64,000 bases of DNA, taken from Podarcis cretensis (Eukaryota). Each line of letters starts with the position of its first letter. Position 1 is the first letter of the stretch. Below are positions 16,359-63,363 of the stretch, piece after piece. The notes below the pieces were generated by a model that did no database searches, had not been told where the DNA came from, and saw only the letters and a list, made by a program, of their open reading frames with translations. The stretch is taken from the NCBI GenBank assembly GCA_951804945.1, contig OX638158.1, forward strand, positions 44,888,001 to 44,952,000, in the 5' to 3' direction. The position numbers and the translations under genes are program-made.

Positions 16359-16360
<2 letters not shown>

Positions 16361-22006: not shown

Positions 22007-22081
22007 ATTATTATTATTATTATTATTACTATTACTATTATTATTATTACTATTATTACTATTATTACTATTATTATTATT
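22007..22081. repeat. (TTA/CTA)n microsatellite
   Basis: Direct read; explains the poly-Leu ORF 21975..22286. Confidence 0.95.
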
Positions 22082-23475: not shown

Positions 23476-24369
23476 CTGCAAGACAAAGGAGGGCGATCTA
23501 AGAACAAAAATACTGAACTGGTTCTTCTCACTTTACAGCAATCAGGGATTACATCAAAGGAATCAAACAATTTCAGTAGTAGAGCAAAGATGTTGATTCG
23601 AATGTTACTTTGCCTTTTAAATAAATTTGCTATTGGCAACAAAACAATAAGAATGTCATTCATCTTTCAAAAAAGACAGTGATGCCCCCTTTTTTTACAT
23701 ACTATCATTACAAGATAGTTTCTAGTAAAAAAATAAAGTTACAAAACAGAGGAATGCTTTCCAATAGTAAGAAGAGTATAACTGAAATTAATTTAGGGAG
23801 AAGATAATCTAGAGCAAGCATATGCTTTGGTTTTAGTGACAATATACATTTCTACTACTGCCATTTTTAGTATCTTCTTAAAGGCTGCTGACAATAAAAT
23901 TTTATCCTCAATTGCTTACAGCCTTGTATAATTATTCGTATTTCTGTAAATCAAGTGTAAAATGCTACAGTTTATACCCATTTTACACAGATGTAACATA
24001 CTGGTGAAATCAAGCTCTAGTTTATTAATAGTATAAAATTCATACATGAATAATGGACCCAAAGCCTTATGAAGTCATTTGCAACAGGAGTTGCTTTATA
24101 CTGAATACCCTTTTTAATATTTGACGTGGTTTCTGCAGGATGTTGTACACTCTATCCTCGTAAGTAAAAGATAAAAAAGAACATATCCAGCCACAGTAGT
24201 TCTTCTCCAAAATGTATCAACCAAAGTGAAGGGCCATGCACACAATCTTAAATAGCATTACAAATACAGTTGTATGTAAACATACAGGTGAGGGTCACCA
24301 ATTTGTATTTAAGGAGATTGTATATGTCAATATGTGGGAACAAGATTCTCAACAATGTTATCTTGGTTG

Positions 24370-24635
24370 TGAGACCTGGAAGACCTGCTCTCAATGATTC
24401 CAGCTACAAAAGCTGAGGCTGCTGAACAGACCCTTGGGCTGGGGTGTTGGGAGTTTTTGTTGGGAAAGGGGTTCTTGCTGTGATTTATGTGAAAATCATT
24501 CAGTTTTGTTCAGCTTTTATGTTTTATTCATTGTTTATGACGAATTGTGTTATGTTGTAGTTAGGTCTTTTTTTCATGTTGTGTGCCACCTTGAGCATGG
24601 TTTGAACTGTGGAAAGGTGGAATACAAATAAAATT
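24370..24635 (+). mobile_element. Probable L2 3' end
   Basis: T-rich tract followed by TTGTGTGCCACCTTGAGCAT...GAAAGGTGGAATACAAATAAA, resembling L2 3' termini. Confidence 0.5.
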
Positions 24636-24767
24636 ATGTGTGCATGTATGTTGGACTACAACTACCATCAGACCCAGCTAGCATGAGCAAAAATTGGGCG
24701 AGATGGGACATGTAGCCAGTAACCACAGGAAGAGCCACAGTTTCCCTAGCCCTACTATAGACTAAAG

Positions 24768-25318
24768 CAGAGGTCGGCAACCTAAGGCCCATGGCCGGTT
24801 CCAAGGACCGGCATGGGGATTCCGTAGGTTTTTTCCTGCAGCGTGGGTGCCATTCCCCCCCCCTCTCCTTCACTGCAGCAGAACCTCTTCCCTCCTCCTG
24901 GTGCAGCAAATTGCTGGCCAATTGCCTGCTAAGGTTTGAAGGCCCTGGCCAATGGCTGCACGTGGCTGAGAGGAGGAAGGGGACTGGGCTGAGCTTGCCG
25001 AGCGCATTTCCAGCAGCCCCTTGTCAGAGCAAGCTGTTTGCCACTGCCGCTCTGCCAAGCGTGGCTCCTGTGCCTGCCCTTGTGAGTGGCAGAGGCTGGC
25101 GGCAGCAGAGGAGGAACGAACAGCCCAAAAGCAGCCCTTTCGGGCTGCTTGTTCCTTTGCCGCTGCCACCAGCCTCTGCCTCTCAGCAGCACCCTAAGTA
25201 GGGGGTGGGAGGGGCTGGGGAAGAGAGGGGGGAAGAGAGATAAGCCCCCTCTTCCTTATGCCAGGAGGTTTGTGGTGTGGTGAACCGGCCCACCCCCCAA
25301 AAAGCTTGCCAACCCCTG
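24768..25318. mobile_element. GC-rich non-autonomous hAT (Charlie-like) element
   Basis: TIRs CAGAGGTCGGCAA / TTGCCAACCCCTG; internal inverted repeats at 25088-25180; TSD only partly matching (GACTAAAG / GACTTTGG). Confidence 0.7.
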
Positions 25319-25805
25319 GACTTTGGGCGAAAGGACTTTGGGCCAAAGAGCAGTATCTTTGTTTGTTCATGTCATAAAATTTATATACCGCTTCATTGTA
25401 GGGGGGACACACACTCTCAAAATGCTTTACAAAATTCATAAATAAATAATTTAAAAAGTGAACCAAGGAGCTCTTTTCCCATTCCTTGCTGTAGGCTGGG
25501 AAACATAGGATTTCTTAAGTTCTGGTGGCTATAAATATGCAGCACAGAAGTGATGCTCTACAATTGCATAGGAAATCTAGAAATGGAACCATATGTTTTG
25601 AGGCAAATACCAGGTCCCCAGCCTTAAATTTAACTTGTAATGCTGATGGGGAAGTGCCATTTGCAGGAGATAATTAGCAGGAGGAAGGTCATACTGTATT
25701 TTACTTTAATACAACAGCAGCAGCAACCCAGCTTAGCTTCAAGACTGTAAAATTAAAAATCCCACTTACTGATTCTCCCCTATAAATGATCCAGTCTGTC
25801 TACGT

Positions 25806-26186
25806 CAGGGGTGGCCAGCTCCTAAGAGACTGTGATCTACTCACAGAATTAACAACTGGCAGTTATCTACCCCTTTTTGTCTACCCCCTTTTATGGGGTT
25901 CAGGTCAAAGTTGTTTAGCTTTTTTTAGGGAGGAAGGATGCCCCAATTTTTGAGAATTCAAGCCTAAACTCAAGGGAGAAAGGGGAACGCCACTCACCAA
26001 CAGATCGCTGGGGAAACAAACAGCCTCACTGAGTAAACTCCGTCTTCCATTCTGCAGATCGTGCAACAATGGAGGTCGGACCGTATTTTACATACGCTAA
26101 GGAAAGGGACCCCGTGATAACTGCAATCTACCAAAAGTTCCTGGGGATCTACCAGTAGATCGCGATTGACCTGTTGGACATCCCTG
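25806..26186. mobile_element. Non-autonomous hAT element
   Basis: TIRs CAGGGGTGGCCA / TGGACATCCCTG; TSD RTCTACGT at 25798-25805 and 26187-26194; GATCTAC subterminal repeats. Confidence 0.8.
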
Positions 26187-28589
26187 ATCTACGTCATACT
26201 ACCCTGGCAAGCACAGGTTTGGGGACAAATACTTGCCAGTGTAAAATGTAGCTCTGACCCAAGACATAGAAATTTAATTTAGTACAATGAATTTTTGATC
26301 ATTAGAATAGCTAGCTAAGAGGAATCTGATTAATTCTACTGTTGGGAAATGTTCTCAACAGGAGAAATAACCACCTCAGATGATTGGCTCTTTGTGACTA
26401 AAAGATGAATATGCGGCCATATTATTCACACACGCCCTGCCCTCCCTGCCAAATGCAAAGGATAACGATGAGCCAAGTGGGATTAACAGAAAAGAAACAA
26501 TGCTATTAAATTTACTGAGAGGTCAGTGACTTTGGATTATTAGGAAGGACTGAAAGAGCTAAGTAGTCAGTATATTAAAATACAAAGCAGTAAAGGAGAA
26601 GACATGATCGTGTATCGGTATGGCTGGCTTTTTACTATAGCTGCAATTCAGAACATGGTTATGTGCTTAAACTTCATTGATTATACTGGACTGCAGTCCA
26701 TCTTTTATTGCCACTTTAAGATGAACTGCAATGTAACAGATTTTAAATTGCATCCAGTTATATAATAAAATACATAATACTGTCATAAATTTCCATTAAG
26801 GTAAAATTTACTTTTTGAAAAAAGATGTTTTAAGTGATATTGGAGTTAAAAATATGTCTGCAATAATTTCTGTACTTCAGTATACCATCGTATATCTTAC
26901 TAAAGGCACTGGCTGTTGAATATGCTAGCATTGGTGAGTTTTCTGACAGATAGCCATCACACAGAGATTTTCTTTTCTTCTTTTACTCTACATAGTAATA
27001 TTATATTACTATATAATGTAGGGTGCAATCATATACATAAAATCTACTGGATGAAGGGCTGTAGCATTTGGCAGCAGCTCTTCTGTACCAGTGGGATTTG
27101 AGAATAGCTACAGGCATTGTAGACGCTGGCAGAACTTCTCAGATATGCCAGAAGAATGACAGAAGTGGAGAGGAATTTGTTGGCATGATGCCGCTGTCAG
27201 AGGAAAATCATGGAATGACAGTGCAACTTAAAGGCAGTAGATACACTCCCTGATGTAACCCAGCATTAATTACCTACTGAACCCACATTGAACACAAACC
27301 CACCAAGTTACATGTTATTGGCTATGATGGGCGAAAGCCAAGACTACATGCGGTTGAAACGTATTTTCCACATCCTCAAGCAACAACAATTGAAACTGAT
27401 CCCACAAAGTCTGACTTGCCGCTGCTCTGAACAACTCCACAGGGATCGTATCAAGAAGAGAATCCCATTCCAAGCAAATACAAGTGACTTTATTCTCAAC
27501 GTACTTTACAAACTTAGAACAGCAGGCTTCCAAAGATGCCATTCCCCTCTCCTCTGGGCTAGTTCTCAAGAAAGACTTCATCACTTGGGACAGTTTGGCT
27601 GGGCGGTTCCTTGGGAATGCAATGGAGGCAGCAAAATAGGATTTATTTTCTCTCATCACCACCACATTATGTCCTCTCACTTTTGTCTGGTTGCATTCAT
27701 TGTGGTACTTGCCTTGCTTAAGCTATATCTCTCTACTGGGTTGATTTGTTGTCTTTTAACTCCCCACAAAACGAAGGGGGATCACAGTCTTTACCACACC
27801 TGAGAGAGCACTTAGGAGTGACTGTATTGAAAGCCTGTTCCATCTAGGGGCAGGCCATCTTAAGAGGCTCCCAGCACTGCAGGAGAGAACTGTTCTTGGC
27901 AGTCCAAATCTTACCTGGAAGTAGTCTGACTATGACAACTGAGTTATTCAACCTCCCCCAATTCCATCCACTCTTCATCTGCCCTGTGGCAAAGCCCAGT
28001 TCAACGTCCCAGGTTAGCGATGTGTTGAGACAGCATCATGGTTTTGTCATGGTGGCCATGAAATCCCAAGCTGTACTACTATGGCAGCCCAGCAGGTCCC
28101 CCATAACACCACCCTATCTGTGCCAGCTTGAATAGAAAGGGTGCTTGGCTGGGCAGCAGGGAGGGTGGTACATGAACATTATTTCTACTCCACCTCTCTG
28201 ACCAAACTTCAGATACAATCCCTTAAATCTAAATCCCAAGTGGTTAGGTTTCCTGGTGATGGTGATTTATTCATCAAAGATGATGGTGACCCCTCCACCC
28301 CTCTAGGCTGGTGATGGACAAGAACCCCACCAAGTACCTAGCTGGACTGACCTGGTTGTCACCAACCTAGAAGCACCACTAGCCTGGAAGGCTGGTTGAA
28401 AGGACAACATAAATCTTGTTGGCTGGGAACCCAGAAGAGGGATAGCTCTTACTTACTTACCCTTGTTCTCCTTTCCTGTAACACTCTTGGCCCAAAACAA
28501 CAGAGAGCAGTGCTCCTCACACAAAGGGGAGGCACTCATTCCTGCACAAAGGTAAGTTGTCTATTGGCAAAGGTCAAGCACTTCACAGG

Positions 28590-28790
28590 GCTATCAATGG
28601 TTACTAGCCATGATGGTTGTACTCTACGTCCACAGTTGGAGGAAGCAATGCTTTGGAAGACCAAAATGTTCTTGTGCTCAAATCCTACTCGCGGGTTTCC
28701 CATAGGCATCTGGTTGGCCACTGTGAGAACAAGATGCAGAACTAGAAGGGCCATTGGCCTGGTTCAGAAGGCTCTTCTTGCCTTCTTATA
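28590..28790 (+). mobile_element. 3' tail of the same old CR1-type family
   Basis: GGCATCTGGTTGGCCACTGTGAGAACAAGATGC...GGGCCATTGGCCTG...TTCTTAT; shared with 598-676 and 10690-10760. Confidence 0.65.
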
Positions 28791-31700
28791 TTGATGTAAA
28801 ATGAAAACCCATACTAGGAATTGTTACTTAAATGGCCAATATTGTGATGTCTTTCTATACAACCATGGTGCTGCTGCATTAAGATTACTGTGTACAATTC
28901 TAGTTGCCAAACTCTTTTTTTTTTTTTTTTTTAAAAAGGATTATAGAACTGGAAATTTATGGGGGAAAGGTGGTCAAAAGGGTTAGCGTTTCAGCTGTTT
29001 AGTTTAGAATGAAGGATGACTGGGTTTGTGTGTAGGAGGAGAATAGGACGTGCTATAAATGTTTATTAAACAATGCATGGTGTGGGGAAAGTGAATATAA
29101 ATAAATGTGTCTTCCTGCCTCATTATGTCAGAATTCAAGGTCATATAACAAATTTGATTAGCATGAGATTCAGGACAAACAAAGCCCTTCTTCATACAAC
29201 ACATAATTAACTTATAGAATATACTGCCAGAAAAAGTGGCGATAGTGACTGGCTTAGACGGCTTCAAGAGGGGATTATGCAACTAGGATTAATGCCTGTA
29301 ACTGACAATTGACGTTGCGTCTGTTATTTGTGTTTTCTTAAAATTCTGTATAATTCAAAATCTACTGACTACATCAAAAAGAGGGGCAATTGGAGACATC
29401 CAGTAGTGGCTGGGACAGAGACACATTCCCAACACCAGCATCACTGCAGCTTACCTGGACACTGCTGGAATGGAGCAGGGTGATGGTAAAGTTGTGGCTG
29501 TGCAGATGCATTGGCAAGAGCAGCCGAGTGAATCCACCAATGGGCCTGTGAAGTCCCAACCTCCCCACCCTGCTCCAGTGCCATCTCTGCACTGCAGTGA
29601 CGGTGTTGGGAGGCCCCACCATACTGGCCACCACTGGACAAATCTCTGGTGGTTTTCAGGTGGCAAAATGGAAGCTCCAGTGCACCACTGAGCATTCAGA
29701 GCTCTGGCATTTATGGTCTGCTTGTGAGCTTCCCAGAAGCAAGCATCTGCTGCAGCACTGGGGAACCTGTGCTTCAGCAGATTGTGTTGGACTCTTAACT
29801 CCCATCAATCCCAGACAGCATGGCCAATGTTCAGGGATGATTGGATTTGTAGGCCAGAAACACCTGGAGGGCCTCAGGTTGTTCAGTCCTCCTCTCATGG
29901 AATCAGAATTCTGAGTGATGGATTTTTGGTCTGAACTGAAGGATAACTATATAGCAAATATTAGTTTTTCACTGACTGTTCATCACCTATTCTGGCTTGT
30001 TGTACATCAAGAAAGGAAACTTGCCTCCTGGAGGTACATGATAGTACTAACGACTAAAAGTTTATGTCATTGGACAGTTCTGTCTTCAGAGTTGTGAAAC
30101 ACTCAGCATACTATTCTAGGAATTTGAACTGCGGCTGATCGTGGGGCAATTAATTTTAATTGCTATAACAATTTGCCCGTATACTTGAATATTGCTTAAG
30201 TTATATGAACAGCTGCTATAAACTATTAAAGAAACATGAACGCTACTGCCTTTCAGTTAAATGGTAGGCTGAATTCTTGAAAACAAAACCATGCAACTAG
30301 GAAAACAGAAACAAGCAGAAGCAACTGCCGAAGAATTGCTGTAAAGCAATTAATGCACGTCTCTTGGTGGTTCCTCTTTCCTTCACCTACTCTTTAAAGA
30401 TTAATTAACCCCTGCCAATAATTTAAGCTTATTACAGAAATGTTTTTCAGTTTAAAAAGCAATGCACCAATCCTAAAGAATAATGGGAAACTGTTATTTG
30501 CATTAGAACACGGCTGCTATAATTGATCAGCGCTTCTGCACTAAAGCATAAACATTATGGCTTGGATCCAGACTTTGCACCTGTGGGTGGTGCTATCGCT
30601 TGAATGGAAGGATCTCAGGGAACTTCCCACTGGGAGAGGGGGAAACGTGGCTCTTGCCAATTTCTACTTCCACTCCAACCACTGCCTCCTACACTGTTCC
30701 AGAGATGTAGGTCCCTTCTGGAACTATGTGGGAGGTAGCATTAGGGCTTCCAGGGAGATGGAAGATCAGCTGAAGTTGTGTCTCCCCCTCTGTCAGTAGG
30801 ATCCCTCTGCTGGATCAAAAGACTTTCCATTCACAGAAGATGACATCGGGATGCAAACCAATGGTGGTTTGCTTTAATTCAGCTACAGTTGAAAGAAACT
30901 CACAGGTCCTTGCATGTACATATTAGTGCTCTGCTTAAAAATCCTCCTGACCATCCATTTATAAAGAAAAGAATTCTATTTGAAAAATTATTACAATTAT
31001 TAAAATATCATGGGTTGCAAGGTTTTTGCTTTGCTTACCTTGCTTTCAAAGTAACCAAGAGATGTTAGAGTGTCTCTGCAAAAGAGGCACTTAGCCATTT
31101 CAATAGAGTTTGGATTACCATTGCAACATGGGTGGCGATGGGCATCTGCAATTTGCCCAGAAGGTTGCTTGCATGCCAGAATCTTTCTTGCCAAAGTGGG
31201 GTTGGTTTTCTCTTTCAAGTCATTACTGTCTTCATATTTTTCCAATATTACTTTGCTTTTCATTGAAGCTATTCTATTTTCCACTCCCCCCCCCATATTC
31301 TTTCCTACTTCAAAGACCATTTTCTTCCGCATTTTCTGCTTATTAGAGCATGTAGCCAAATTACTGATTACTGTTTATTATAAGCACTTCAATGAATATG
31401 ACTACTCAAGAGTCAATGGCATAAAATTCTGGGATAAACAGAAAAATCTAGGATGCACAGAAAGAGAGGGTTATAATTAATACAATTTCCTTGTTTAAAT
31501 CAATAATAGCTGCACCCTTTAAAAAGAGCTTTAACAAATATGAAGGCAAACTACATTGGGGTCTTTGGTCTGTTTAAAATTCCATACTTCAAGGGAAGCC
31601 ATGTCAAATTAAAGAGATAGACAAAGGAAAGTTTGGGGCTGTGTTTGCATGTTTATTATTTTTCATCATCAAGATTAAAGATAAATAAAACTAGAGTTCA

Positions 31701-36756: not shown

Positions 36757-37119
36757 GGGGACGCAGGTGGCGCTGTGGGTTAAAGCCTCAGCGCCTAGGA
36801 CTTGCCGATCGAAAGGTCGGCGGTTCGAATCCCTGCGGCGGGGTGCGCTCCCGCTGCTCGGTCCCAGCGCCTGCCAACCTAGCAGTTCGAAAGCACCTCC
36901 GGGTGCAAGTAGATAAATAGGGACCGCTTACCAGCGGGAAGGTAAACGGCGTTTCCGTGTGCGGCTCTGGCTCGCCAGAGCAGCGATGTCACGCTGGCCA
37001 CATGACCCGGAAGTGTCTCCAGACAGCGCTGGCCCCTGGCCTCTTAAGTGAGATGGGCGCACAACCCCAGAGTCTGTCAAGACTGGCCTGTACGGGCAGG
37101 GGTACCTTTACCTTTACCT
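36757..37119 (+). mobile_element. Sauria SINE, full length
   Basis: GGGACGCAGGTGGCGCTGTGG A box, GGTTCGAATCC B box, (ACCTTT)n tail; 13-bp TSD TAGTATAAGGGGC at 36744-36756 and 37120-37132. Confidence 0.93.
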
Positions 37120-37275
37120 TAGTATAAGGGGCACAGTTTACAGGCCATCTGTAGGCACAGGCTGTGCAGCTGTGATGTTACAGAAGCCTCCAAGTGCCAG
37201 GCTTCAGGGAATCCAACCCCGCTCCCTCACAGCAGGCTGCCAGTAATGGAAATACAAGAAGCTCTTACCAAGGTA

Positions 37276-37642
37276 AGGTAAAGGTAAAGGTACCCCTGCC
37301 CGTACGGGCCAGTCTTGACAGACTCTAGGGTTGTGCGCTCATCTCACTCTAGAGGCCGGGAGCCAGCGCTGTCCGCAGACACTTCCGGGTCACGTGGCCA
37401 GCGTGACAAAGCTGCTCTGGCGAACTGGCATCAGAGCAGCACACAGAAACGCCGTTTACCTTCCCGCTATAAAGCAGTACCTATTTATCTACTTGCACTT
37501 AAGGGTGCTTTCGAACTGCTAGGTGGGCAGGAGCTGGGACCGAACGACGGGAGCTCACCCTGCCGCGAGGATTCGAACCGGCGACCATGCGATCGGCAAG
37601 TCCTAGGCGCTGAGGTTTTACCCACAGCGCCACCTGCGTCCC
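37276..37642 (-). mobile_element. Sauria SINE, full length
   Basis: Reverse complement of the same family; 13-bp TSD TCTTACCAAGGTA at 37263-37275 and 37644-37656. Confidence 0.93.
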
Positions 37643-38716: not shown

Positions 38717-38739
38717 TAGATGAAACCCTTCTGCTAATT

Positions 38740-38876
38740 CAGGCATAGGCAAACTCGGCCCTCCAGCTGTTTTGGGACTATAACTCCCACCATCCCTGAC
38801 CACTGGGTCCTGCTAGCTAGGGATGATGGGAGTTGTAGTCCCAAAACAGCTGGAGGGCCGAGTTTGCTTATGTCTG
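38740..38876. mobile_element. Palindromic hAT MITE (same family)
   Basis: TIR CAGGCATAGGCAAAC; 8-bp TSD TGCTAATT. Confidence 0.9.
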
Positions 38877-39557
38877 TGCTAATTTGTGTACTTACTTGTA
38901 CTTACAGGAAATCCTATTTCAGCCAAGTACTTTAAATAGGAGTGACATGACAAGATAGGAATAAGGTCAATAATATCCAACAAGCTTGCCTGCATCCTTT
39001 TGTTTCTAATAAAATGCTTAAGCGCTCTATTTAATGGACCTAGTCTTGTTTATCACTTACATATTGCTGCTGAATAGAGTATGAGCTCAAGACTGCAAAA
39101 TCAAGAAAACTTTCCCATTCATATGTAATCTATGTTTAACTATTCTTTCTTTAAATCCTAGCCCGTTGGCATAGTGAACAAAAGGATAAGGTGACGGGGA
39201 TAAGTTAGAAGTACCTGTTTCTGAGAACAGTATTCTGCAGCTTCTGAGAATAGTATTCTATTCTCAGAAGCTTTAATATGTGCAAAAATGTTCTGGAGTA
39301 TAGACTTCCATCTGGATGTGCATTTTACTTCTATACCTGTATCTCTCTTAATAGACATGCAGCAGATCAAAAGCAAAAATAGTGTTCTGATTTAACTTAT
39401 TTAAGGAATGTGGCTTAATCACAGGAATGCCATACTGTGCTATCAATTCTTTAGTTATAATTTTTCATTTAACAAGTTTTGTGAGAATACATTATCGCAA
39501 CACAATGACATCAAAATAAGGTAAAGCATAATTCTTTTAACAATAAATGTTGAGTAC

Positions 39558-39745
39558 CTGTTGTTTCCAAGGCCACGGTCTTTGGTTTTAACATCAAGGT
39601 CATAAATAAAGTGTTCTTGGGAGATTCCTACAATATTTTCTGCAGTTTCATTTCCCTTGATGGTGATAACAGGATAACCCATCTGCAGTGTCCACTGATC
39701 CATTACTTCTTGGATATTCACAAATTTCCCAACCTTCTTCAGTGC
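39558..39745 (-). CDS. TRHDE: TRHDE coding exon (188 nt, ~exon 9): ALKKVGKFVNIQEVMDQWTLQMGYPVITIKGNETAENIVGISQEHFIYDLDVKTKDRGLGNN(S)
   Basis: Inside ORF 39455..39775; ttttgaag|GCACTG...AACAG|gtactc; contains the MxxWTxQxGYPVI motif of M1 aminopeptidases; phase 0-2. Confidence 0.96.
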
Positions 39746-40431: not shown

Positions 40432-40924
40432 GTTCATCTAGTCATGTGGGACTAGAGCTGTATTGGGGCAAAAGTATATCCATGGAAAGAGCATTTTGTT
40501 TCCCATGCCCCTTTGCACATTATTCAATATGATTTTAATCTGTCTTTCTGTTTGTGAAGCAACAGCTAGCACATACATGCTCTTTTCCATCATGACTGAC
40601 ATTACAGTTATTTGGCTGCCCAGAATACTTATAGTTGACTGCACCAAATCATAAACAGCTTCTCGTTTAGTCCATTACACTTCTATGTTGCTTCCTGCTT
40701 CCCTTCAGTTCATCTCAAAGGAGCTGATATCTGGATCCATTTGTTTTGATTATCCATTTCTAGATACTCTGTCTTTCACGTTCCATAAATTTTTATTTAA
40801 GGATTTTCCAAAATGATATACAGCCACGCAAATAAAACACTCATTAACAGGAATATGAGTTTCAGGATGGGATATTTACTCCTCAGGTTAACCCAAGTTC
40901 CCTGAAAACTTTAAACTGTATTAC

Positions 40925-40990
40925 CTCTGACAACGTGTTCCATAGGTCCTTTCTGGCAGCATTGCCATACTTGTGAATGGTTAGATAATC
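40925..40990 (-). CDS. TRHDE: TRHDE coding exon (66 nt, ~exon 8): DYLTIHKYGNAARKDLWNTLSE
   Basis: tttgtag|GATTATCTA...TCAGAG|gtaata; phase 0-0. Confidence 0.95.
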
Positions 40991-41232
40991 CTACAAAACA
41001 TATGTAAACGAGTCGTTATTGTAAAAAAAAAAAAGCAAACTTATTCCAAGTCAAACTATGGTGCTCTATTAATACAACAATTAAGTATATTCTCATACAC
41101 AAATCATATACATGTATCTTATAAGTTACAACAATAAGTTACAACAATATTATTTCCTAATTTGGGGCTGTGCCCCTGTTCACTCCACTCGCCAATCCCC
41201 TCAGCCATCCCCTCCATATTAACTCCCTAGAG

Positions 41233-41368
41233 AAGTGGTGGCCAAACTTGGCCCTCCAGCTGTTTTGGGACTACAATTCCCATCATCCCTGACCACTGGT
41301 CCTGTTGCATAGGGGTGCTGGGAGTTGTAGTCCAAAAACAGCTGGAGGGCCAAGTTTGGCCACCACTG
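41233..41368. mobile_element. Palindromic hAT MITE (same core, different TIR)
   Basis: TIR (C)AGTGGTGGCCAAACTTGG; 8-bp TSD CCCTAGAG. Confidence 0.9.
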
Positions 41369-44300
41369 CCCTAGAGCTTCCCCTTACCACTTCATAAAAC
41401 TACTATGCACCCTTTTCACCTTCTGCACAGAAGCCACTACAATCTCTTCTACCCTCTTTCCCCTGCCTCCTCTTTCTTCCTTTTTTCAACTTTCCCTTGC
41501 ACGCAGACACCCCCCCCCCACACACAAACATTAGTTTGTTCAGTTAGAAAAGGTTAAGTTGATGGATGTTGTACATATATGGGTGTTTGCTTGTCAGTCA
41601 AATACTACATTGAATCTGGAACTTCATGTTGAAGACAACACATGGTATTAAGAGTGAAATACAATATGTAAACAAAGGCAGGGATAAACAACTTTCAAAA
41701 CTATAATTCGATGAACGAACTTTTTGCTCTCAAATTAATTCTCAAACTTTTAAATTTTCAGACTTTTTAAAATGAAAAATAAATAAATTACAGTTTCTGC
41801 AGCAGTTTCCAACTCTGGGAAACTTTCCAAAGATAGGTGCTACTTATTATTTCAGCAGACTGTTTTGTGGTTTGTGTCAAGAAACCACAGACTCTGGTTG
41901 ATAGCTAAATCTGTTATTAAACATTTTTAAAAGGAACAGTCTATTCAAGACTTATGTCTATTAAGGTTTTATGGTCTTGCAATTTGATTCTGCAGAATTT
42001 TTTATGCTATCAAACCAAGTGCACAAATTTTAGTTTGAAACTTCTCTTAAAGAAGTGGGTTTCATCTCACAGAACAGAAGCTTCTTATGTGCAAGGGTTC
42101 TACTAAATGCTAAGGCAATTGTTAGATCAGCAAGTGTCTTTCAATGAATGTAATTAAGGTTTCTGACAATGTAAGTTCAATATTGATTTCTTTTGTCCTT
42201 TTCATTCCTAAGTTTTATCTCCCTACCTACACCATACTAGGGCTAGGATTACATTTTATAGATCCAGCTTCGTTTTGTTCAGTGTTCTGGAGTTCCATAA
42301 AGCATATTAAATTGGATATAGAGCAAGAGATTTTCTACTTGATCTAAGCATAAAATGTGAATACATTAAAATGCATTTTATTTACCAGGTAAAAAGCAGG
42401 ATTCCCATACATGTGAATGTTCACCACCTTCACTTAAGAAAAGCAGTAGAAGGCAAGCCCTAATTTCAAGCAAAATCATTAAAAATTGTGCTGACTGTGT
42501 TTTCTGCATGGTATGTGCATGAACTAGGTATTTCAATGGTAATTAGTGTTTGGGGAGCAAACATCCTGATGCACAAATTGGAAGCACTCATGACACATTT
42601 AGCTTTAGTTCTGTGAACTCGCTGTACAAGAAGCAGAAACTCCCATATAATCACAGCTTAGAAAAGTTAAATGAGAACACTGACTCACTTTAACCACAAT
42701 GCATAGTTTTTTAAATGTCATGAAAATAAGCCTTAGAAAAGATAGCAGAATATATGCTCCTCCAACATACTGTGCTAATATCTAAAAATAAACAACTCAA
42801 TGGTTTCTCCGGGTGAACTGATAATTTTTATAATAAAAACACCCACAGTAAGCATATAAACAAGATGGGTTATCTAAGTCAGCCCCACTTATAAGAGGGT
42901 ACGACTGGTTTTGTTTCCACGTTAGTTGCTATAACCAGTAGATGCATATGTTGGAAGGGTTTTCAATATTTGCCTTTCTCAACTGCACATTCTAAGCTTC
43001 ACATGGAAAATTCTATGCTCAGAAGATCACTGCTAGCGATGATATATTGTGACCCAGTTCCAGCATATGCAATTAGGGGATAACTTAAAAATGTATCCAT
43101 GCTAATGCTAAATGTTACATTAGAATCAGCCCTCAGTGTCAAAGGAAGAAAGACCAAGATCTTGAAATGTATGAGGAACTTTTCAAATCCCAACAGACCA
43201 CAATGGTTGTCAGGAATTTATGAAGTTCAGTCTTAAAGCTAATTTGACTGCTATGCTGCCATGACTGATAGAAGAAGAGTATTTCACTTCTGTCATTGAT
43301 GTTCTCCTGATGTTGGCATGATCTTGAGTTGTATATTGGCCATGTTTTACTGTACACAACAGGTGTGAAGCACCTCCAACATTTACGCCAACAAGTCAAT
43401 GCATGTTTCTTAACAGTCTACATTAGCCACTACATCAGCTGCTACCGTTTCTTTTAATTCTTCCTACAGAACATTCGTAGGAAGAAGAAAATGTTTTTTT
43501 CTTTGGTATTTGTTTTATATACCATGGAAGCTTGAATTTTCCTTTTAATTTCCAAATATGCCATTTTAGTAAAAAATAATAATATGTAGAGCTTATATAA
43601 AGAGAAAATAATGACACTTGAAATGAACTGCAAGTTACAAACTCATGATACACAGCACTATTCATTATATTTTGGTGTTTTTGTTTGTTTGTTTTTTGTT
43701 TTTTTGCACTATTCAACTGCTCTAGGGCTAGATTGATTTTGTTCCACACACTGCCTTTAACAATCAAGTGGCTTGTAAAATTAGCAACTGTAGAACTGTG
43801 CCTCTTGCAATGCCAGGTTCTGCTGGGCAATCCACAGGGAGATTATAATGAACACAGTACAAATTCCTCCTCCCAAAAATTCTAGCTCAAGTACCTTGCT
43901 GTGAGAAACAGCAAGGAAATATAATGGAATCCCCCAAATCCCATCTTTGTGGAAAGACTATGAGCCAACACAAGCCAACATTTTTGCACACACTCTACCA
44001 CAATCTTTTTCATATTCTAGGTCTTAAACATGTTTTCACATTACATTTAACAGTTCTTCCAGGAAGTCCATTAATACCACAAAACATTCAAAAGTACATC
44101 TCAATCCATTTTATATAAAAATGAAGAACATGCAGAAAGGCTGTATTTACTATACAATGCCATAATTAAAATAATAAACTATACAACTAAAGAATTAGAA
44201 AGGTTAACTTTTTCTACTCCCCACAGAGAGAGCTGCTGTAAATTGAGGATAGGTTCTCCAAAGTGGGTAATCACTGAGATAATTTCTTTTAAAATTGTAA

Positions 44301-47300: not shown

Positions 47301-48861
47301 ACCTACAAGTAATAGTAAGACATTCAATAAAGAATACAATATATGTAAACGATATAATTGAAAATAATCACAATGAGGAATAGCAAAACCACAATCCCTC
47401 CATATTCCAACAACACATGACCCTCAAATGAAAAAAGAAAACATCACCAACTGTTGCAAATGAAAAGGGGAATTAACAGTCAAATGCCTGGGAGAAAAGA
47501 CTTTGCCTAGCACTGAACATTCCATAGACTAAGTGCTGAGACGGAAAAGGATGTTTCCTTGTTACCAAACTTCAAACAACCGTAGGAGCAACTGTGTGGC
47601 TTTGAAAGGGTAAGTGGTAGGCGTGAAGGCCCCAGTCTGGATTGCGAACCTGATGGGGCAGAAGAGAGTTTAACCTGGTTGCCTGTGTCAGTGGTTTTAA
47701 TAAGGATTAGAACACCATCCCTACAATATGCACTGAAAGGAAGGCTCTAACTCAAGCCAATAGAACCTTTCTTTTCAGCAAGATAGATAGCAGCTGTAGG
47801 GCCCCTATACTAGATAGGGACAAGTAGTGGAGATATATATTTTTTATATATATAAAGCCTGCCTACCCCACCAGGGTCCAGATCTGAGCTTAGTTCACTG
47901 CATCTGCCAATTACACTAAAAAAAAAAAAAAATCCTCTACAAATACAGTTCAGGGAATTGCTAATTGCATGAATTGTGTGACATTCAGTTTGACTCCCAC
48001 ACTGTAGCCATAACAGACACACCTGCAAACCAGCCTCCCACAAGAGAAACAAAGAATGTGTATTTGATGGTTTCTCTTCACACATAGCATTATTTCTCTT
48101 AAAGAATTGCCAAAGGTATGAATTTGACGACTTCTTTTTATAGAAGTACAATATACCTAGACTATAGATGAAATGATTAGGATTATGTTGGCATGAGAAG
48201 TATTCAATAATATTTTAATCTAATGGGATTTTGCATGTTACTCTTTTGTTTTTATGACACATGCAAGGCATTTTTATCTAATAGGGTAAGATAAAAATAC
48301 GATAATCACCGTCTTTTTCTATAACCACTTTACTATGTTTTATTGTAGCAGTTCTTATTAATGTATCACGTTTATAAAATATGGAGCCTACAACAAAACC
48401 AAGATAATACAAATTTTCCAACACATTAACCTATTGGGATTGGCATTTAAAAATGGCTGCATTGAACTAAAGACTAACAACATCGTTTGAAGATCACAAA
48501 ATGTCTGCATTGTGCCTCTATCTTTCACACATCCCTAGACATAAAAAATAAAACTGCAAAAGCTTGTCAAATTATAGTCGGTCTCTGAAGAAAATTAAAA
48601 TGCTTAAATTATCTGGAAAGTATGTTACCTGAATACTGAGGCAGATGGCTTGAATATTTGAAGAGAAAACAGAATAAAATCTCCTAAAGGTTTCTGACAG
48701 ATGTTTGTAGCAACAGTGTTTCTGAATAAGTTTACAAGTCCTTTTTAAAGTGTGTGCTTGTGCTTAGGAAAAACCTGTCCACTCATACTGAAGAAGGCCT
48801 TTATCCCTTTGCTATGTTCACTCTCAATTCTACCTGACTCTTCATCGAAACAAGATGATAT

Positions 48862-49201
48862 AAGGTAAAGGTAAAGGGACCCCTAACCATTAGGTCCAGT
48901 CGCAGCCGACTCTGGGGTTGCGGCGCTCATCTCGCTTTATTGGCCGAGGGAGCCAATAATATGTGGCCAGCATGACTAAGCCGCTTCTGGCGAACCAGAG
49001 CAGCGCATGGAAATGCCATTTACCTTCCCGCTGGAGCGGTACCTATTTATCTACTTGCACTTCATGCTTTCGAACTGCTAGGTTGGCAGGAGCAGGGACC
49101 AAGAAATGGGAGCTCACCCCGTCGTGGGGATTCGAACCGCCGACTTTCTGATCGGCAAGTCCTAGTTTCTGTGGTTTAACCCATAGTGCCACCCGCGTCC
49201 C
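48862..49201 (-). mobile_element. Sauria SINE (different subfamily)
   Basis: AAGGTAAAGGTAAAGGGACCCC tail and ...GCCACCCGCGTCCC head; TSD AAACAARATGATA at 48848-48860 and 49207-49219. Confidence 0.92.
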
Positions 49202-50139: not shown

Positions 50140-50678
50140 CATAGAATCATAGAATTGGAAGAGACCACAAGGGCCATCGAGTCCAACTTCCTGCCAAGCA
50201 GGAAACACCATCAGAGCACTCCTGACATATGGTTGTCAAGCCTCTGCTTAAAGACCTCCAAAGAAGGAGACTCCACCACACTCCTTGGCAGCAAATTCCA
50301 CTGTCGAATAGCTCTTACTGTCAGGAAATTCTTCCTAATGTTTAGGTGGAATCTTTTTTCTTGTAGTTTGGAACCATTACTCCGTGTCCGCTTCTCTGGA
50401 GCAGCAGAAAACAACCTTTCTCCCTCCTCTATGTGACATCCTTTTATATATTTGAACATGGCTATCATATCACCCCTTAACCTCCTCTTCTCCAGGCTAA
50501 ACATGCCCAGCTCCCTTAGCCGTTCTTCATAAGGCATCATTTCCAGGCCTTTGACCATTTTGGTTTCCCTCCTCTGGACACGTTCCAGTTTGTCAGTGTC
50601 CTTCTTGAACTGTGGTGCCCAGAACTGGACACAGTACTCCAGGTGAGGTCTGACCAGAGCAGAATACAGTGGCACTAT
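50140..50678 (-). mobile_element. CR1 LINE 3' fragment
   Basis: ORF 50211..50735: [25 protein letters not shown]...[12 protein letters not shown]-like...WNLLP; (ATTCTATG)n tail. Confidence 0.95.
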
Positions 50679-51223
50679 GATGATTCTTGCATATGCAGTA
50701 CAACACTCAAAACTGCACCTAGAAGGTGGTGCCATCTTTAGGAGAAGAGCATAAAGGATCTTTGTTGTTTGCTGCTTGCCTTTTTCTGAGAAGCCTCAGG
50801 GTAGTTTGGAGATACTACATATGTTGCTTCTGTGGTCTCTGACCTGGCAGATCCATTATGGTTAACCTTTTTACCTCTATCCTCAAATGACTTGTGATAT
50901 GAGCACTCTGCTACAGACTAACAAACAAGCAGCTTATTGCCCTGCCTTGTAGGAGGATAAAAAGGTCAGAAGGTCATAGGACAGAATCTACAGCAGACTA
51001 GTTGCATGTAAAATCAGAAAGTATGGTTGAAAACTGAGCTCTAGCCAAGACCCACAGAAGGAAGTGGAATACAAGTTGGTATATTTGCAATTCTGCATGT
51101 ACAAAACTATTTTTAAATGTCATTAATATGCCACATGGCACAATTGTGTATTATAACTAAGTTATACGTGTTGCAACTTTTATGTTGTTCAAGGGGGAGC
51201 AAGATTTGGGTTTGATAAGAAAC

Positions 51224-51644
51224 TTGTTGTTGTTTAGTCGTGTCCGACTCTTCATGACCCCATGGACCAGAGCACGCCAGCCTTCCACTGCCTCCCGCAG
51301 TTTAGTCAAACTCATGCTGGTAGCTTCGAGAAAACTATCCAACCATCTCATCCTCTGTCGTCCCCTTCTCCTTCTCTTTCCCAACTTCAGGGTCTTTTCC
51401 AGGGAGTCTGCTCTTCTCATCAGGTGGCCAAAGTATTGGAGTCTCAGCTTCAGGATCTGTCCTTCCAGTGAGAACTCAGGGCTGATTTCCTTAAGAATGG
51501 ATAGGTTTGATCTTCTTGCAGTCCATGGGACTCTCAAGAGTCTCCTCCAGCACCATAATTCAAAAGCATCAATTCTTTGGTGATCAGCCTTCTTTATGGT
51601 CCAGCTTTCACTTCCATACATCACTACTGGGAAAACCATAGCTT
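51224..51644 (-). mobile_element. BovB (RTE-clade) LINE 3' fragment
   Basis: ORF 51157..51660: AMVFPVVMYGSESWTIKKA...IDAFELWCWRRLLRVPWTARRSN; (CAA)n tail. Confidence 0.95.
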
Positions 51645-51776
51645 GCTCTCCCCACCCCACCCCAATAACTGTTAGGAGAAACCTTTTCTTTCCCCCTATG
51701 CTTCACAGGTTTCAGAAAATTTCACATCTCTAAGATCCAAGTTTCCACTCAGACCCAAATGTGCAGGTGTCTAGGG

Positions 51777-51912
51777 CAGGCTCCCTCAACCTCAGCCCTC
51801 CAGATGTTTTGAGACTACAATTCCCATCATCCTTGACCACTGGTCCTGCTAGCTAGGGAGCATGGGAGTTGTAGACCAAAAACATCTGGAGGGCCGAGGT
51901 TGAGGAAGCCTG
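51777..51912. mobile_element. Palindromic hAT MITE (same core, third TIR type)
   Basis: TIR CAGGCTYCCTCAACCTC; 8-bp TSD GTCTAGGG. Confidence 0.9.
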
Positions 51913-52362
51913 GTCTAGGGGATGGAGCTGGCAGGGCATTCATGTTGATAATGGGCCCATAATGAATGTATAAGGGATGAGCACTCGAACCCTCTTCCCA
52001 ACATGAATGCCTTCCAGCTCCATTCCCAAGATACCTGACGAGTCATGTGTCTGAAGGAGAAACCTATGTAAGTACAGGTATATGCATATAAAACTCCTCT
52101 TAACGATTGGGAGCTCTGCACTATCAGGTACTCTCACTGATCTTAGCGTCTTATTTCACAACTGAACTGAATATGCCAAGGTTTGGGGACTGGGACTGGG
52201 ATGGGTATTAATGTTAGGGGCATGACCAGTGCACCAGCCCTACTTGCTTCTGTCACGACTGAAAATTGGCCGCTGTTTCTTTAACGCTTAAAAAGCTGGT
52301 CAGCATGAGTCAGCGGCCTGCGCCCTATATATAGAGTGAGAAATGTTAGTTTGTTGTTGGGC

Positions 52363-52692: not shown

Positions 52693-52949
52693 CCGTATTT
52701 TTTGCTCTATAAGACTCACTTTTTACCTCCTAAAAAGTAAGGGGAAATGTGTGTGCATCTTATGGAGCGAATGCAGGCTGCGCAGCTATCCCAGAAGCCA
52801 GAACAGCAAGAGGGATTGCTGCTTTCACCGCGCAGCGATCCTTCTTGCTGTTCTGGCTTCTGAGATTCAGATTTTTTTTTCTTGTTTTCCTCCTCCAAAA
52901 ACTAGGTGCGTCTTGTGGTCTGGTGCGTCTTATAGAGCGAAAAATACGG
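52693..52949. mobile_element. pogo-type MITE (CCGTATTTT termini)
   Basis: TIRs CCGTATTTTTTGCTCTATAAGAC / GTCTTATAGAGCGAAAAATACGG; TA TSD. Confidence 0.88.
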
Positions 52950-53790: not shown

Positions 53791-54419
53791 TTTAAAAAAC
53801 CACCTAAATGTGCCCAACTTAAAAATCAGTGTTAAGCTAGGGTGGCTATTTGTCCTACTTTTTTCATTAAAGTTTTTCTCTGCTTGAAGAGCAGTCTGGT
53901 CCAAGTCTGGTTTAAAGATAAAGAACCACTGAGGGAGAGAGCAAGGTGTCCATCAACAGGCTGCACCTGGAGAGCATGCTGAGCAGGCATGCAGGAAGTT
54001 TTCACCCCTACCTTGAGATGTACTGTATTTCTATTTATAATACAGTAATTCTTTCTGATTTTTTTAATCTATACCCATGAATTAGCACATGCATATTTTA
54101 TGGAAACCTGTGTCCTATTTTTGTTGACATGCTACCTTTTGGTGAGGTAAAGTTATGTGGCCACCATATATTACACTTTTCTTAAATCTGAAACACATTG
54201 CCTTCAAAAAGATTAAATGTTGTAAATAAATAAATATAAATAAATAAATGCAATTCTTTCAGAAAGATGTCTTAAGTTTACCCCAAGTGATCCTCACAGG
54301 CACTGTGGGAGGGCTAAATTGGTACCTCATCCCACTCTGTCCTACTCCTCTGCCCTTGTCAAAACAAAATAAAAAATTCCTTCCAGTAGCACCTTAAAGA
54401 CCAACTAAGTTAGTTCTTG

Positions 54420-54456
54420 GTATGAGCTTTCGTGTGCATGCACACTTCTTCAGATA
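54420..54456 (-). ncRNA. Second copy of the minimal hammerhead motif, on the TRHDE sense strand
   Basis: Minus strand TAT-CTGAAGA-AGTGTGCATGCACAC-GAAAGCTC^ATAC; stem I only 3 bp. Confidence 0.65.
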
Positions 54457-54463
54457 GTGAAGT

Positions 54464-54501
54464 GTATCTGAAGAAGTGTGCATGCACACGAAAGCTCATA
54501 C
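54464..54501 (+). ncRNA. Minimal type I hammerhead ribozyme motif (Penelope-associated)
   Basis: GTAT-CTGAAGA-A-GTGTG(CATG)CACAC-GAA-AGCT-C^ATAC: stem I GTAT/ATAC, CUGANGA core, stem II, GAAA, palindromic AGCU in place of stem III, cleavage predicted after C54497. Confidence 0.75.
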
Positions 54502-56329
54502 CAAGAACTAACTTAGTTGGTCTTTAAGGTGCTACTGGAAGGAATTTTTTTATTTTGTTTTGACTATGGCAGACCAACACGGCTACCTATCTGTAACTCT
54601 CCTCTGCCCTTGTTTCTCTCTCTGCACCTCACTGTCACTCCATCCACAAATATGTCTGACACAGTCTATGTGATCCCATATCCCACTTTCATGAACCAGT
54701 TGGAATTGTTTCAGCGTTTGGGGGCATGGCTACCTCTGGCCTTGTTCTGCATTCACCACCCCAGTTTTCCAAAAATTTCTCTTGTTGCTGTTTCCTTTCA
54801 ATTACACAAGGCAAACAACAACAACAACAACAACGTCACACACAAAACAAATCCAGCACCTGAAAATGGCTATGGCTCAACTTACTCCTTAATACAGGAA
54901 CTTTTCTTCCTAGTGCAATTTCTGGTTTTTCTCCCTCCCCTCTGCCCTCAGATGAATTAATGTGTACCTGAAAGAGCTAGAGATGGCTCGGATAAAGATA
55001 GCACCAGATTTGAAGAGGATTGGGGATGGGCAGTATAACATTAAAATCTTCCTCTGCAGATGATGTAGTAGGGCAGAGACAGTAACCTGACCTTCTACCA
55101 GGTGAGTCACTGCTGCTTACCACAAGGCAAGAGGGATGGGGTGAACCGGCGGCAACTTCAGCGAGGAGGAAATCCACCAGAAGGGACATCAAATTAGCTC
55201 AGTTGGTGTGTTCGTTCAACACTACCACACCCTCTGGGGAAGCAGCAGCGACTCACCAGCTGGTCTCAGGTAAGCACCTCGGTCCCACCATACTATCTGT
55301 TACTTGTCTTCCTCCTAAAATGTGCTAGTGCGTTCTTTGCTTACAAAGGTGGATTTAGGGGAGCATGACTGGTTCGCCTGCCCTGGGCACCAAGCTGAGA
55401 GGGCACCAGAACAATGATGTCAAATGGAAGGCAAGAGCGGGTGTGCCAAACGTCGGGTGCCGCTGAAATTTGAAAGCCCAAAGTCCACAACTGTTGCTTA
55501 TAGCAGATCTCTAGAACTTGTGGGCTGCCAAGCTGAGTAAAGTCCATCTGCCCTTGCATTGTGCCCCCTTTTCGCAGTCCCATACTGATTGCAAAGAAGG
55601 GGTGCTTACTGGGCACTGTGGCCATAGGATGTAGATGGTTATTTGCAGGTTGTCTCGAGTTGTGGAGGCCTATCAAATAAAGGCATGCTGGTGGTCCGTT
55701 CTGAGCCCCACAGAGGTAATAAGTGAGGGAAATGTCTCTCTGTGTGTTTACTAATGAACATTATGGATTAGCAACCCTTCATTATGGCTACATTAACAGT
55801 TAAGTAATCAGTGAACACTGAAAACAGCAATGCACTAAGATCTGAACCAGGGCCCCAAACTGAGAAAAACACAGAATGTATCATTTATGAAGTCATACAC
55901 ATAGTGATTTAAATAAAATGTTTGCAGTTGTGAAGCTCTAAATTTGAGAGACCTGAAGGAAGTACCGTAGCTGTGTCTTCCCCTCAGAAACCAGCAACTC
56001 AACATCACAGAACATGCAGAGAAAAGACAGAGGAAGACTGTCAGTCAGAATAGATAGGTCAGCTCTGTTCAGGTGGTTCTTTGACAAGTTTCTTTGTAGG
56101 AAACGTAGTTGATGTAAGAGACTTTTAAGATATCATGCTAAACTATAGTTTGGTGGTACATGAATGAGTCTGGGGCTCATGAATTCTTCCTGCTCCTCTC
56201 CTCTTTTGCTGCAGGCATGAGGAGAATAGAAGCATTTGTTTCCATTTTCAACTAACCACTGTTTGTAATTATCTCTGAACTGGGACAAACTGTGGTTAAT
56301 CTTAGCAATTGTTTTGGGAAAACAAGCAA

Positions 56330-57520
56330 ACAGCAGATGTTTTCTAAAATTTGTATAGCTGTTTATCTCCTCAACATCTGATGGGAGGACATTCCACAAG
56401 GTGGGCACCACTACCAAGAAGGTCCTCTGCCTGGTTCTCTGTAACCTCACTTCTCTTAGTGTGGGAGCCACCAGAAGGCACTTGAAGCTAGATCTCAGTG
56501 CCCGGGCTGAACAATGTGGGCAGAGACACTCCTTCAGGTATACTGGGCCAAGGCCATTTAGGGCTTTAAATGTCAGCACCAACACTTTGACTTCTGCTCA
56601 GAAACGTACTAGGAGCCAGTGTAGATCCTGTAGGATAGGTGTTATATGGTTCTGTCAGCCGCTCCCAGTCACCAGTCTAGCTGCCAAATTCTCGATTAGT
56701 TGTAGCTTCCAAGTCAACTTCAAAGCTAGCCCCACATAGAGTACTTTGCAGTAGATGAAGCGGGGGATAACCAGTGCATGTACCACTATGGTGAAACAGT
56801 GTGTAAGCAGGTAGGGTCTCAACTAACGTACCAAATGAAACTGACAGACAGCTACCCTGGACACAGAAATGACCTGAGCCTCCATGGACAGCTGTGAGTA
56901 CAAAATGACTCCAAGGCTGCATACCTAGTCCTTCAGGGGCATAGTTATCCCATTCAGGACCAGGAATCCCCCACCCGCCCACCCTCTATCCCTCAGAAAC
57001 AGGACTTCTGACTTCTTGGGAGTCAACCTCAATCCATTAGGACCAGTGGTTCCCAATCTTTTTTTGGTCATGCCCCACCTAAGCATCTCTAAAATCCTGA
57101 TGCCCTCCCCGTGGCATATAATTCCTATTATTCAAAAAGTGAACTCCTATTCACATGGAGGAAGCCCAAAAGGCCATTAACTGTTAATAACTCATTCTCA
57201 AATTGCTTCCCTTAAAAATCAAATTGCCCCTCTGTATGGTGTGTGCCCCACATTGGGAACCACGGCATTAAACATTATCCATCCTCCAATCGCCTCCAGA
57301 CACTCACACAGGACATTCACTGTCTTCACTAGTTACAATATAAAGGAGAAGTAGAGCTGGGTATCATCCGCATACTGGCGAACACTCAGCCTGAACTCCC
57401 TGATATCTCTCCTAGCGGCTTCATATAGATGTTAAAAAGCATGGAGAGGTCAGAGCCCTGTGGCACCCCACAAGTAAGTGCCCTGGGGTCCGAACACTCA
57501 CCCCCCAAACACCACTTTAT
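56330..57520 (-). mobile_element. Degenerate L2 LINE fragment (RT and C-terminus), interrupted by a hAT MITE
   Basis: Minus strand GVPQGS (~57460), QYADDTQLY (~57350-57378) and LVLTFKALNGLGPVYL...PTLWNVLP (ORF 56133..56585). Confidence 0.85.
57044..57265. mobile_element. hAT-type MITE nested in the L2
   Basis: TIRs CAGTGGTTCCCAA / TTGGGAACCACGG; imperfect TSD (CATTAGGAC / CATTAAAC). Confidence 0.75.
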
Positions 57521-62547: not shown

Positions 62548-62613
62548 TTGTAGGCCCATCTGAAACACTGAGTGACCCATAAAATTAGCCAGCATTCGAA
62601 TTAAAGCTGCGCC
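62548..62613 (-). CDS. TRHDE: TRHDE coding exon (66 nt, ~exon 7): GAALIRMLANFMGHSVFQMGLQ
   Basis: ttcacag|GGCGCAGCT...CTACAA|gtatgt; phase 0-0; M1 peptidase KGAxxxRML motif. Confidence 0.95.
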
Positions 62614-63153
62614 CTGTGAACATAATTCATAAAAGGAAATGTTGAAAAAAAATTACACAAACATTCTTACAGCAATAGCATATGCAATATACATTTAGTC
62701 CCTTTAATGATTATTATAGGCTTATCATAAATAATTACATTTAGAAGCAGGCAATTTTTTATTCAACATAAGCCGAGTATGAACTCACACATGCTTTGTG
62801 GAAGCAAGAGATAAAAGAAACATATTATCTGGAAGTGGGAAGCTAATAAACCATAAAACATAAATATTACCAAATGTAGTGACATGTTAGAAAAGCACAT
62901 TATTTTCATTAGCTAGCACAACACTGTTTCACCTTAAGAAGAAAAGTGTAATGAGATGGATGAAACAAAAATAAAATATGACAGGTGCAACACACATAGA
63001 GTATATCAGATTGAACTAGGCTAAGAAAACATGGCTGATTGAGGTCCAGTCACAAGCCCCTATGTAATGTTAAATTATGGGTTGACATTACATACATGAG
63101 TCATGGGCTCCTGCCCTCTGCCCTCCTCCTTGGGTGCAGCTCTTTTTAACTTA

Positions 63154-63240
63154 CCGTATTTTTCGCACCATAGGACGCACTTTTTCCCCTCCAAAAATGA
63201 AGGGGAAATGTGTGTGCGTCCTATGGTGCGAAAAATACGG
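63154..63240. mobile_element. 87-bp minimal pogo-type MITE
   Basis: Perfect 27-bp TIR CCGTATTTTTCGCACCATAGGACGCAC; TA TSD. Confidence 0.9.
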
Positions 63241-63363
63241 TACATTGGTTACCTGTTTTGTCTAAATGCAGGCAGAATGTGGTTAGCCTTATCTATGATT
63301 TAGGAAACAAACAGACTTCAAACCACGTTCATGATACTGGCATGCTGTGTGAAGGTAACAAAT

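Follow-up and report, generated by a model that had tools for sequence, protein, structure and literature searches.

The stretch of DNA analyzed here, a window of 64,000 nucleotides (64 kb) from Podarcis cretensis (contig OX638158.1), carries part of the gene TRHDE on its minus strand, as seen from an exon at 39554-39712 (-) that shares 92-94% identity with TRHDE of the lizards Zootoca vivipara and Rhineura floridana, as would be expected of a lacertoid lizard. Protein mapping identified a GT-AG intron of 21,557 nt at 40991-62547 (-), and, because its flanking exons at 62548-62616 and 40916-40990 (-) carry consecutive residues, the insertion described below lies inside this intron, as the original prediction had proposed.

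The insert occupies 54360-54598 (239 bp; predicted to be ~240 bp) and is flanked by a 15-bp TSD, the copies of which (54345-54359 and 54599-54613) match at 15/15 positions and cannot be extended on either side. Most of it consists of an inverted repeat in which 54360-54456 (97 nt) pairs with 54465-54562 (98 nt) with no substitutions and a single T indel located in a T run, which agrees well with the near-perfect repeat of ~99 bp around an 8-nt loop that had been anticipated. We note that the left arm (54360-54456, -) is an inverted, 5'-truncated 97-nt copy of the element end without a tail and is sense on the TRHDE pre-mRNA strand, and that the right arm (54461-54562, +) is a direct copy of the element end of pLTR type. 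The 8-nt spacer (54457-54464) is composite: 54461-54464 belong to the right arm, because loose ends of other family copies before 54461 continue into shared upstream sequence (4/4 of the runs described below), and 54457-54460 are 4 extra nucleotides that match no traced source. Further, the right arm is followed by a one-sided unpaired tail of 36 nt (54563-54598, +), which did not feature in the original prediction, has the 30-40 bp length of the one-sided tail of EN+ Penelope-like element (PLE) insertions, and is bounded at both sides by hotspots of family ends. The minus strand of the insert folds at a predicted -188.9 kcal/mol (z -29.65), and none of 200 shuffled sequences folded as well.

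Two features at the outer end of the insert deserve mention. First, an ATG at 54566, in a strong-looking start context, is followed by 11 open codons to the element end (54566-54598, +); by analogy with the coding tail of rotifer elements in the available part of PMC3846280, we guess that it could be the start of the PLE ORF. A protein search with the 40 translated residues across the tail returned a single match, a spurious ORF from another palindromic copy (P0121). Second, 54336-54344 resembles the last bases of the element (54590-54598), so that, with the TSD included, a 24-nt direct repeat of 83% identity is formed; this is possibly a second similarity between target and template at the outer junction, or chance.

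The window is rich in other repeats. Four related palindromic elements of ~140-150 bp (10540-10678, 38737-38876, 41227-41374, and 51771-51918; mean column identity 74%) are MITE-like and have no hammerhead, and, since two of them share the TRHDE intron with the insert, the pre-mRNA already has other fold-back repeats. Two ~360-bp repeats, which we presume to be Sauria SINEs, lie inverted and tail to tail ~160 bp apart at 36758-37121 (+) and ~37280-37642 (-), with 81% self-match over 908 columns, and form a long potential double-stranded RNA in a TRHDE intron; a third copy is found at 48861-49201. We also observed an inverted pair of a 310-bp repeat (15188-15497 and 19131-19440; 78% identical, 3.6 kb apart), three short self-complementary elements (25083-25185, 52788-52866, and 63152-63242; 78-83% self-match), and, near the insert, a 21-nt inverted repeat (55101-55121 and 55237-55257; 90% complementary, 115 nt apart). 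Decayed open frames at 50211-50795, 51157-51702, and 56133-56597 (-) had no Pfam match; we take them to resemble the 3' ends of LINE reverse transcriptases (CR1, RTE/BovB, and L2-like).

The insert carries one minimal hammerhead motif on each strand

A relaxed motif scan of both strands detected exactly two minimal hammerheads in the whole 64 kb, with cores at 54468 (+) and 54453 (-), and a strict scan found no motif in 20 Markov shuffles. A minimal hammerhead on each strand had been predicted, and both were recovered, although they are unequal. The plus-strand motif, a minimal type I hammerhead at 54464-54501, consists of a CUGAAGA core, an extra A, a 5-bp stem II with a 4-nt loop, GAAA, and a palindromic AGCU; its stem I has 4 bp, and the cut is predicted after C54497. 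Its minus-strand counterpart (54421-54456, core from 54453, predicted cut after 54424) has a stem I of only 3 bp. Both motifs have CUGANGA with an extra base, a G-C pair closing helix II, GAAA, a palindromic helix III, and a UH cut site; a helix I of 4-5 bp, however, is present only on the plus strand. Because TRHDE is on the minus strand, its pre-mRNA carries the left-arm motif with the 3-bp stem I and not the copy cut at 54497, which is antisense to TRHDE. The original placement of the cut after C54497 is therefore right for the plus strand but concerns the wrong strand for the TRHDE pre-mRNA.

The two cores are 14 nt apart and fully complementary, and, as the window has one motif per strand, neither has a sense-strand dimer partner within the 64 kb. 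Cofolding of two hammerhead copies is predicted to favor an intermolecular helix II duplex, which says little about a catalytic dimer. Among the family variants listed at a frequency of at least 5%, none falls in 54462-54496, and C17 is U in 8-16% of the depth. Rfam returned 27 matches up to an E value of 10, with no hammerhead family among them; the best were generic hairpin (miRNA) models below their gathering scores. We rejected a miRNA gene because these matches stem from the perfect hairpin and occur alike on the two strands. With exact and degenerate hammerhead patterns, no match was obtained in viral, metagenome, and prokaryote contigs, as expected for a vertebrate repeat.

The motif agrees with the consensus of metazoan PLE minimal hammerheads given in the available part of PMC4209133, with which it shares CUGANGA plus the extra base, the G10.1-C11.1 pair, a short helix I, and a palindromic helix III, and it resembles the turtle row of the alignment in that source. 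The same excerpt describes pairs of opposite-strand hammerheads 100-700 bp apart in Schistosoma and similar motifs in turtle and snakes; compared with those pairs, the predicted hammerheads studied here have cores just 14 nt apart that are fully complementary, and one helix I has 3 bp. It also reports that a single minimal PLE hammerhead did not cleave in vitro and that dimers cleave weakly.

The insertion is younger than the split from a related species

In organism C, a related species, a 2,302-nt contig joins 54344 straight to 54599 with a single copy of the TSD and differs from the window by 10 substitutions in 697 aligned letters (1.4% flank divergence). In organism A, contigs from 3/3 samples start in the left flank and reach 28, 39, and 28 letters into the element; the 31-letter rule is passed by the 39-letter contig alone, all three samples come from one study, and one is possibly the source sample. 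The presence/absence comparison suggested with the original prediction thus gave an empty site in organism C and a filled left junction in organism A. No empty allele of organism A is found among the best 15 of 405 joints. The empty site establishes that the insertion is younger than the split between A and C. Further, the junction contigs of organism A carry 0, 2, and 3 flank differences from the window, and the insertion is probably older than some of the variation within organism A. The event had been called very recent; it is young, given the empty site in a species only 1.4% divergent, but "very recent" is too strong in view of these differing haplotypes. The pattern makes this copy usable as a simple lineage marker.

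Copies of the family share two 3' hotspots and one 5' hotspot

In four runs (X1-X4, which share loci and are not independent), 10,724-29,649 contigs per run were placed on the stretch, nearly all of them on the element (4/4 runs), which is not a copy number. The results below draw on the best 15 of 405 joints, 12 of 331 rows with inserted letters, and 24 of 889 loose ends. The family is interspersed and multicopy with variable 5' truncation, many 5' ends being seen in 4/4 runs. Among the 24 of 889 loose ends listed, 3' ends cluster at 54598 (55-69 per run, 4/4 runs), which is the main 3' end of the family, and also at 54559-54561 (25-47 per position; 34-47 at 54560 in 4/4 runs). These two hotspots are the two ends of the tail.

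The same rows (24 of 889) place a cluster of 5' ends at 54464, with 37-52 per run; the flanks there are unrelated, and the last consensus letter is G in 4/4 runs. A preceding G is also present in 3/3 of the inserted-letter rows that end at 54464 (among 12 listed of 331). In the upstream consensus of run X2, TATATAAG starts 31 nt before 54464, although the TATA motif is clear in only one of the four run consensuses (agreement 0.82; 0.54-0.69 in the others). A TATA spacing of ~31 nt and an extra G are expected of a capped polymerase II start. This suggests that 54464, which is the first base of hammerhead stem I, is also the start of the RNA. TATA and Inr-like motifs are described for the pLTRs of EN+ PLEs in the available parts of PMC3846280 and PMC8557442, and we count them as common to those elements and this one. 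We considered a splice acceptor at 54461-54462 as the cause of the 5' hotspot, as in Drosophila virilis, where an intron ends at helix I (PMC4209133, available part), and rejected it because the letters before 54464 agree at just 0.37-0.38 and a shared first exon would agree.

The best 15 of 405 joints, in which intronic and intergenic copies are pooled, all run from an antisense arm into a sense arm (15/15), at points other than that of this insert, and in 11/15 one arm starts at 54460-54471 or its mirror. None of the 15 has two complete cores, and 4/15 leave the whole ribozyme uncovered. Outside these joints, 10 contigs in X1 and 11 in X4 have a centre that differs from that of this insert by one missing letter, so that doubly complete centres are probably not rare, and P0121 spans a further head-to-head copy, whose antisense arm is longer. 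Breakpoints at the position of ribozyme cleavage are not apparent: 2/15 listed joints (of 405) are compatible with it within microhomology, which is about chance, and 0/24 listed loose-end rows (of 889) fall there. Among the 12 listed of 331 inserted-letter rows, we also observed head-to-tail joints of 54598 and 54562 to 54464 with one G between, which suggests that a ~135-nt unit also occurs in short tandems, from which ribozyme dimers could arise at other loci.

The insert is most likely a stub of a Penelope-type element

On the basis of its anatomy and hammerhead motif, the insert is most likely a stub of a very abundant lizard repeat of Penelope type, and the Penelope-type origin put forward originally is borne out by both. 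In EN+ PLE insertions, inverted 5'-truncated copies, a one-sided tail of 30-40 bp, and a TSD are standard (PMC8557442 and PMC3846280, each in its available part). In the insert, likewise, a direct copy faces an inverted 5'-truncated one head to head, and the 15-bp TSD is confirmed by the empty site in organism C. The closest likeness is to Pen2a_Av (PMC3846280; overview in PMC8557442), which, in the text available, shares the head-to-head inverted 5'-truncated pLTR, the one-sided tail of 30-40 bp, and the flanking TSD; in contrast to the rotifer EN+ PLEs of PMC3846280, this insert has no ORF, both of its arms are stubs of ~100-140 nt, and its TSD has 15 bp rather than 8-10 bp. No contig linking the pLTR to an RT or GIY-YIG ORF was found by pattern scans of viral, metagenome, and prokaryote collections or by protein search, so the PLE identity is drawn from anatomy and motif; Pfam likewise had nothing in six ORFs of the window and nothing in P0121.

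We also considered that the palindrome itself might be mobile, as a MITE-like or retrozyme-like non-autonomous element that is copied whole. Its terminal inverted symmetry, the very high copy number of the family, and the 10 and 11 contigs of X1 and X4 whose shared centre differs by one letter would fit such an element. However, the ends are asymmetric because of the one-sided tail, and the junction points vary widely among copies (joints listed, 15 of 405; P0121). DNA transposons have fixed short TSDs, and a TSD of 15 bp is unlike these. A MITE in the strict sense, which would have symmetric inverted repeats at its termini and the same interior in every copy, is rejected on the same one-sided tail and varying junctions. 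Non-LTR retrozymes share with the insert a non-coding, hammerhead-bearing sequence related to pLTRs, but, in the available part of bioRxiv 10.64898/2026.07.22.740005, they are head-to-tail tandems able to dimerize, whereas the arms here are head to head with one ribozyme per strand. A retrozyme would have at least two hammerheads head to tail on one strand, and the 64 kb has one per strand, so this class was rejected as well. Overall, we consider a palindrome that is copied whole to be very improbable.

The mirror shape probably arose during integration

We think it probable that the locus records a single PLE-type insertion and that its mirror shape comes from integration, with both ends of a staggered cut priming reverse transcription near the 5' end of the RNA. 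The arms end at the two 3' hotspots of the family (54598 and ~54560), and neither stops more than 3 nt from the 5' hotspot at 54464; relative to the predicted start, the right arm runs 3 nt past 54464 without an extra G, and the left arm is 1 nt short. The element nuclease would cut the two target strands 15 nt apart, and the bottom strand would prime at the outer initiation site and give the tailed arm. At the inner site, the top strand would pair through 9 of 11 nt and prime the second arm. Each cDNA would then extend to the capped start of the RNA, or close to it, and the two would be joined head to head with 4 extra bases. Twin priming is known from LINE-1, which this scheme resembles; here, because both primers copy the same stretch, the product would be a mirror, unlike that of LINE-1.

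In support of priming from the top strand, the last 11 nt of the left TSD are complementary at 9/11 positions to the element just beyond the end of the left arm, a level reached by 23 of 127,978 window 11-mers, though this concerns one locus and a length that was chosen after the fact. The match is possibly a primer-template microhomology; it is equally compatible with fold-back and joining by microhomology, and it is unlike the in vitro priming, which was non-homologous (PMC11167929, available part). That source describes Poseidon of Anolis carolinensis, a squamate PLE with a hammerhead near the 5' region of its RNA, which in vitro cuts and extends both target strands and initiates reverse transcription at two sites that delimit the tail; the family 3' hotspots at 54598 and 54560 match these two sites. 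The likeness is one of description and not of sequence, and the in vitro priming was non-homologous on AT-rich targets, whereas the site here is C/T-rich with a 9/11 match.

The main rival is that one cDNA reached the 5' end of the RNA, snapped back, and copied itself, after which its new end joined the top-strand overhang through the 9/11 match; in a published variant, the template for self-priming is antisense, and Arkhipova et al. 2013 read head-to-head junctions as self-priming (PMC3846280, available part). This explains the present copy nearly as well as twin priming: the arms are without substitutions, the microhomology at the junction fits end-joining, and the 4 spacer nucleotides (54457-54460) could be additions at the turn. 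However, the left arm ends at the inner 3' hotspot, which corresponds to an RT start site of the anole element in vitro (PMC11167929, available part), and the arms differ by one T in a T run. Further, most of the 15 listed junctions (of 405) start their arms tens of bases apart, and this is not expected of a tight snap-back. We therefore judge self-copying of one cDNA to be unlikely, and prefer priming from both cut ends.

Extending the preferred reading to the family, we tentatively propose, as a possibility on the doubtful side of even, that the palindromes are a record of twin target-primed reverse transcription. The RNA would be capped at 54464, so that the ribozyme would remove a 34-nt capped leader (a decapping switch), and the cut strands would prime run-off cDNA from both tail boundaries, the inner one by base-pairing; the thousands of resulting hairpins would explain why, among the LINE-like repeats of lizards, Penelope alone is massively edited. 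The head-to-head pLTR architecture, opposite-strand pairs of minimal hammerheads, and A-to-I editing of lizard Penelope are already published. A search of the PLE, pLTR, and lizard-repeat literature, outside most subscription journals and the repeat databases, found no paper on this family or on a capped start at the ribozyme, and none that states the capped start together with twin priming.

The ribozymes are predicted to be buried in the hairpin, probably incidentally

Folding predicts that transcripts of the insert form a 97-bp hairpin that excludes the hammerhead fold. In the full palindrome, the hammerhead is predicted to account for ~1e-41 (+) and 5e-44 (-) of the ensemble, compared with 0.056 (+) and 1.7e-4 (-) in single arms. 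Minus-strand transcription would make the antisense arm first, and the hairpin would zip up as the core emerges. The proposed sequestration of the ribozyme by the antisense arm is thus supported by folding.

Protection of the TRHDE pre-mRNA, which had been suggested as the function of this burial, fared differently. On this view, palindromic copies would be favored in introns for masking, with their antisense arm, a ribozyme able to cut the host pre-mRNA. The complete sequestration predicted by folding fits it, and tandem hammerhead retrozymes are in fact depleted from Xenopus introns after size normalization, which indicates that intronic ribozymes can be under selection. However, the only hammerhead on the pre-mRNA strand of TRHDE lacks a partner and has a stem I of 3 bp, and, in the available text of PMC4209133, lone minimal hammerheads did not cleave. 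In that of PMC11167929, RNA-seq gave no read ends at the cut site of the anole hammerhead, which required the element protein. Selection for covered ribozymes also sits poorly with the listed joints (15 of 405), where 4/15 leave the whole ribozyme uncovered and 0/15 have two complete cores, with the 42-44% of Xenopus retrozyme copies that are still intronic, and with the several other fold-back repeats that the TRHDE gene already holds. A host safety lock is, in our view, very unlikely. Being a single copy with a 3-bp stem I, the hammerhead in the TRHDE pre-mRNA probably lacks activity in any case, so that the lock is probably incidental, a by-product of element copying, and the insertion probably near-neutral.

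The hairpin is also a plausible substrate for ADAR. In the available part of Porath et al. 2017 (PMC5625713), lizard Penelope is massively A-to-I edited, with more than 40,000 editing sites, and, together with the palindromic Harbinger of frog, provides examples of short self-folding repeats in transcripts that are ADAR substrates. The editing of lizard Penelope is not tied there to its palindromes. Over 54360-54562, the minus strand of the insert offers 65 adenosines as candidate sites.

Discussion

Overall, we conclude that the insert is a real, young, and ordinary PLE-type stub. As a locus it is minor: stubs like it are very numerous, and the intron around it holds other fold-back repeats besides. 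Taken as a group, such minimal insertions offer a clean read-out of the unsettled integration mechanism of PLEs: the two RT start sites, and probably also the start of the RNA, can be read from the stub ends, and mining these genome-wide could separate twin priming from fold-back. Further, such stubs are good candidates for the double-stranded RNA behind the heavy A-to-I editing of lizard Penelope.
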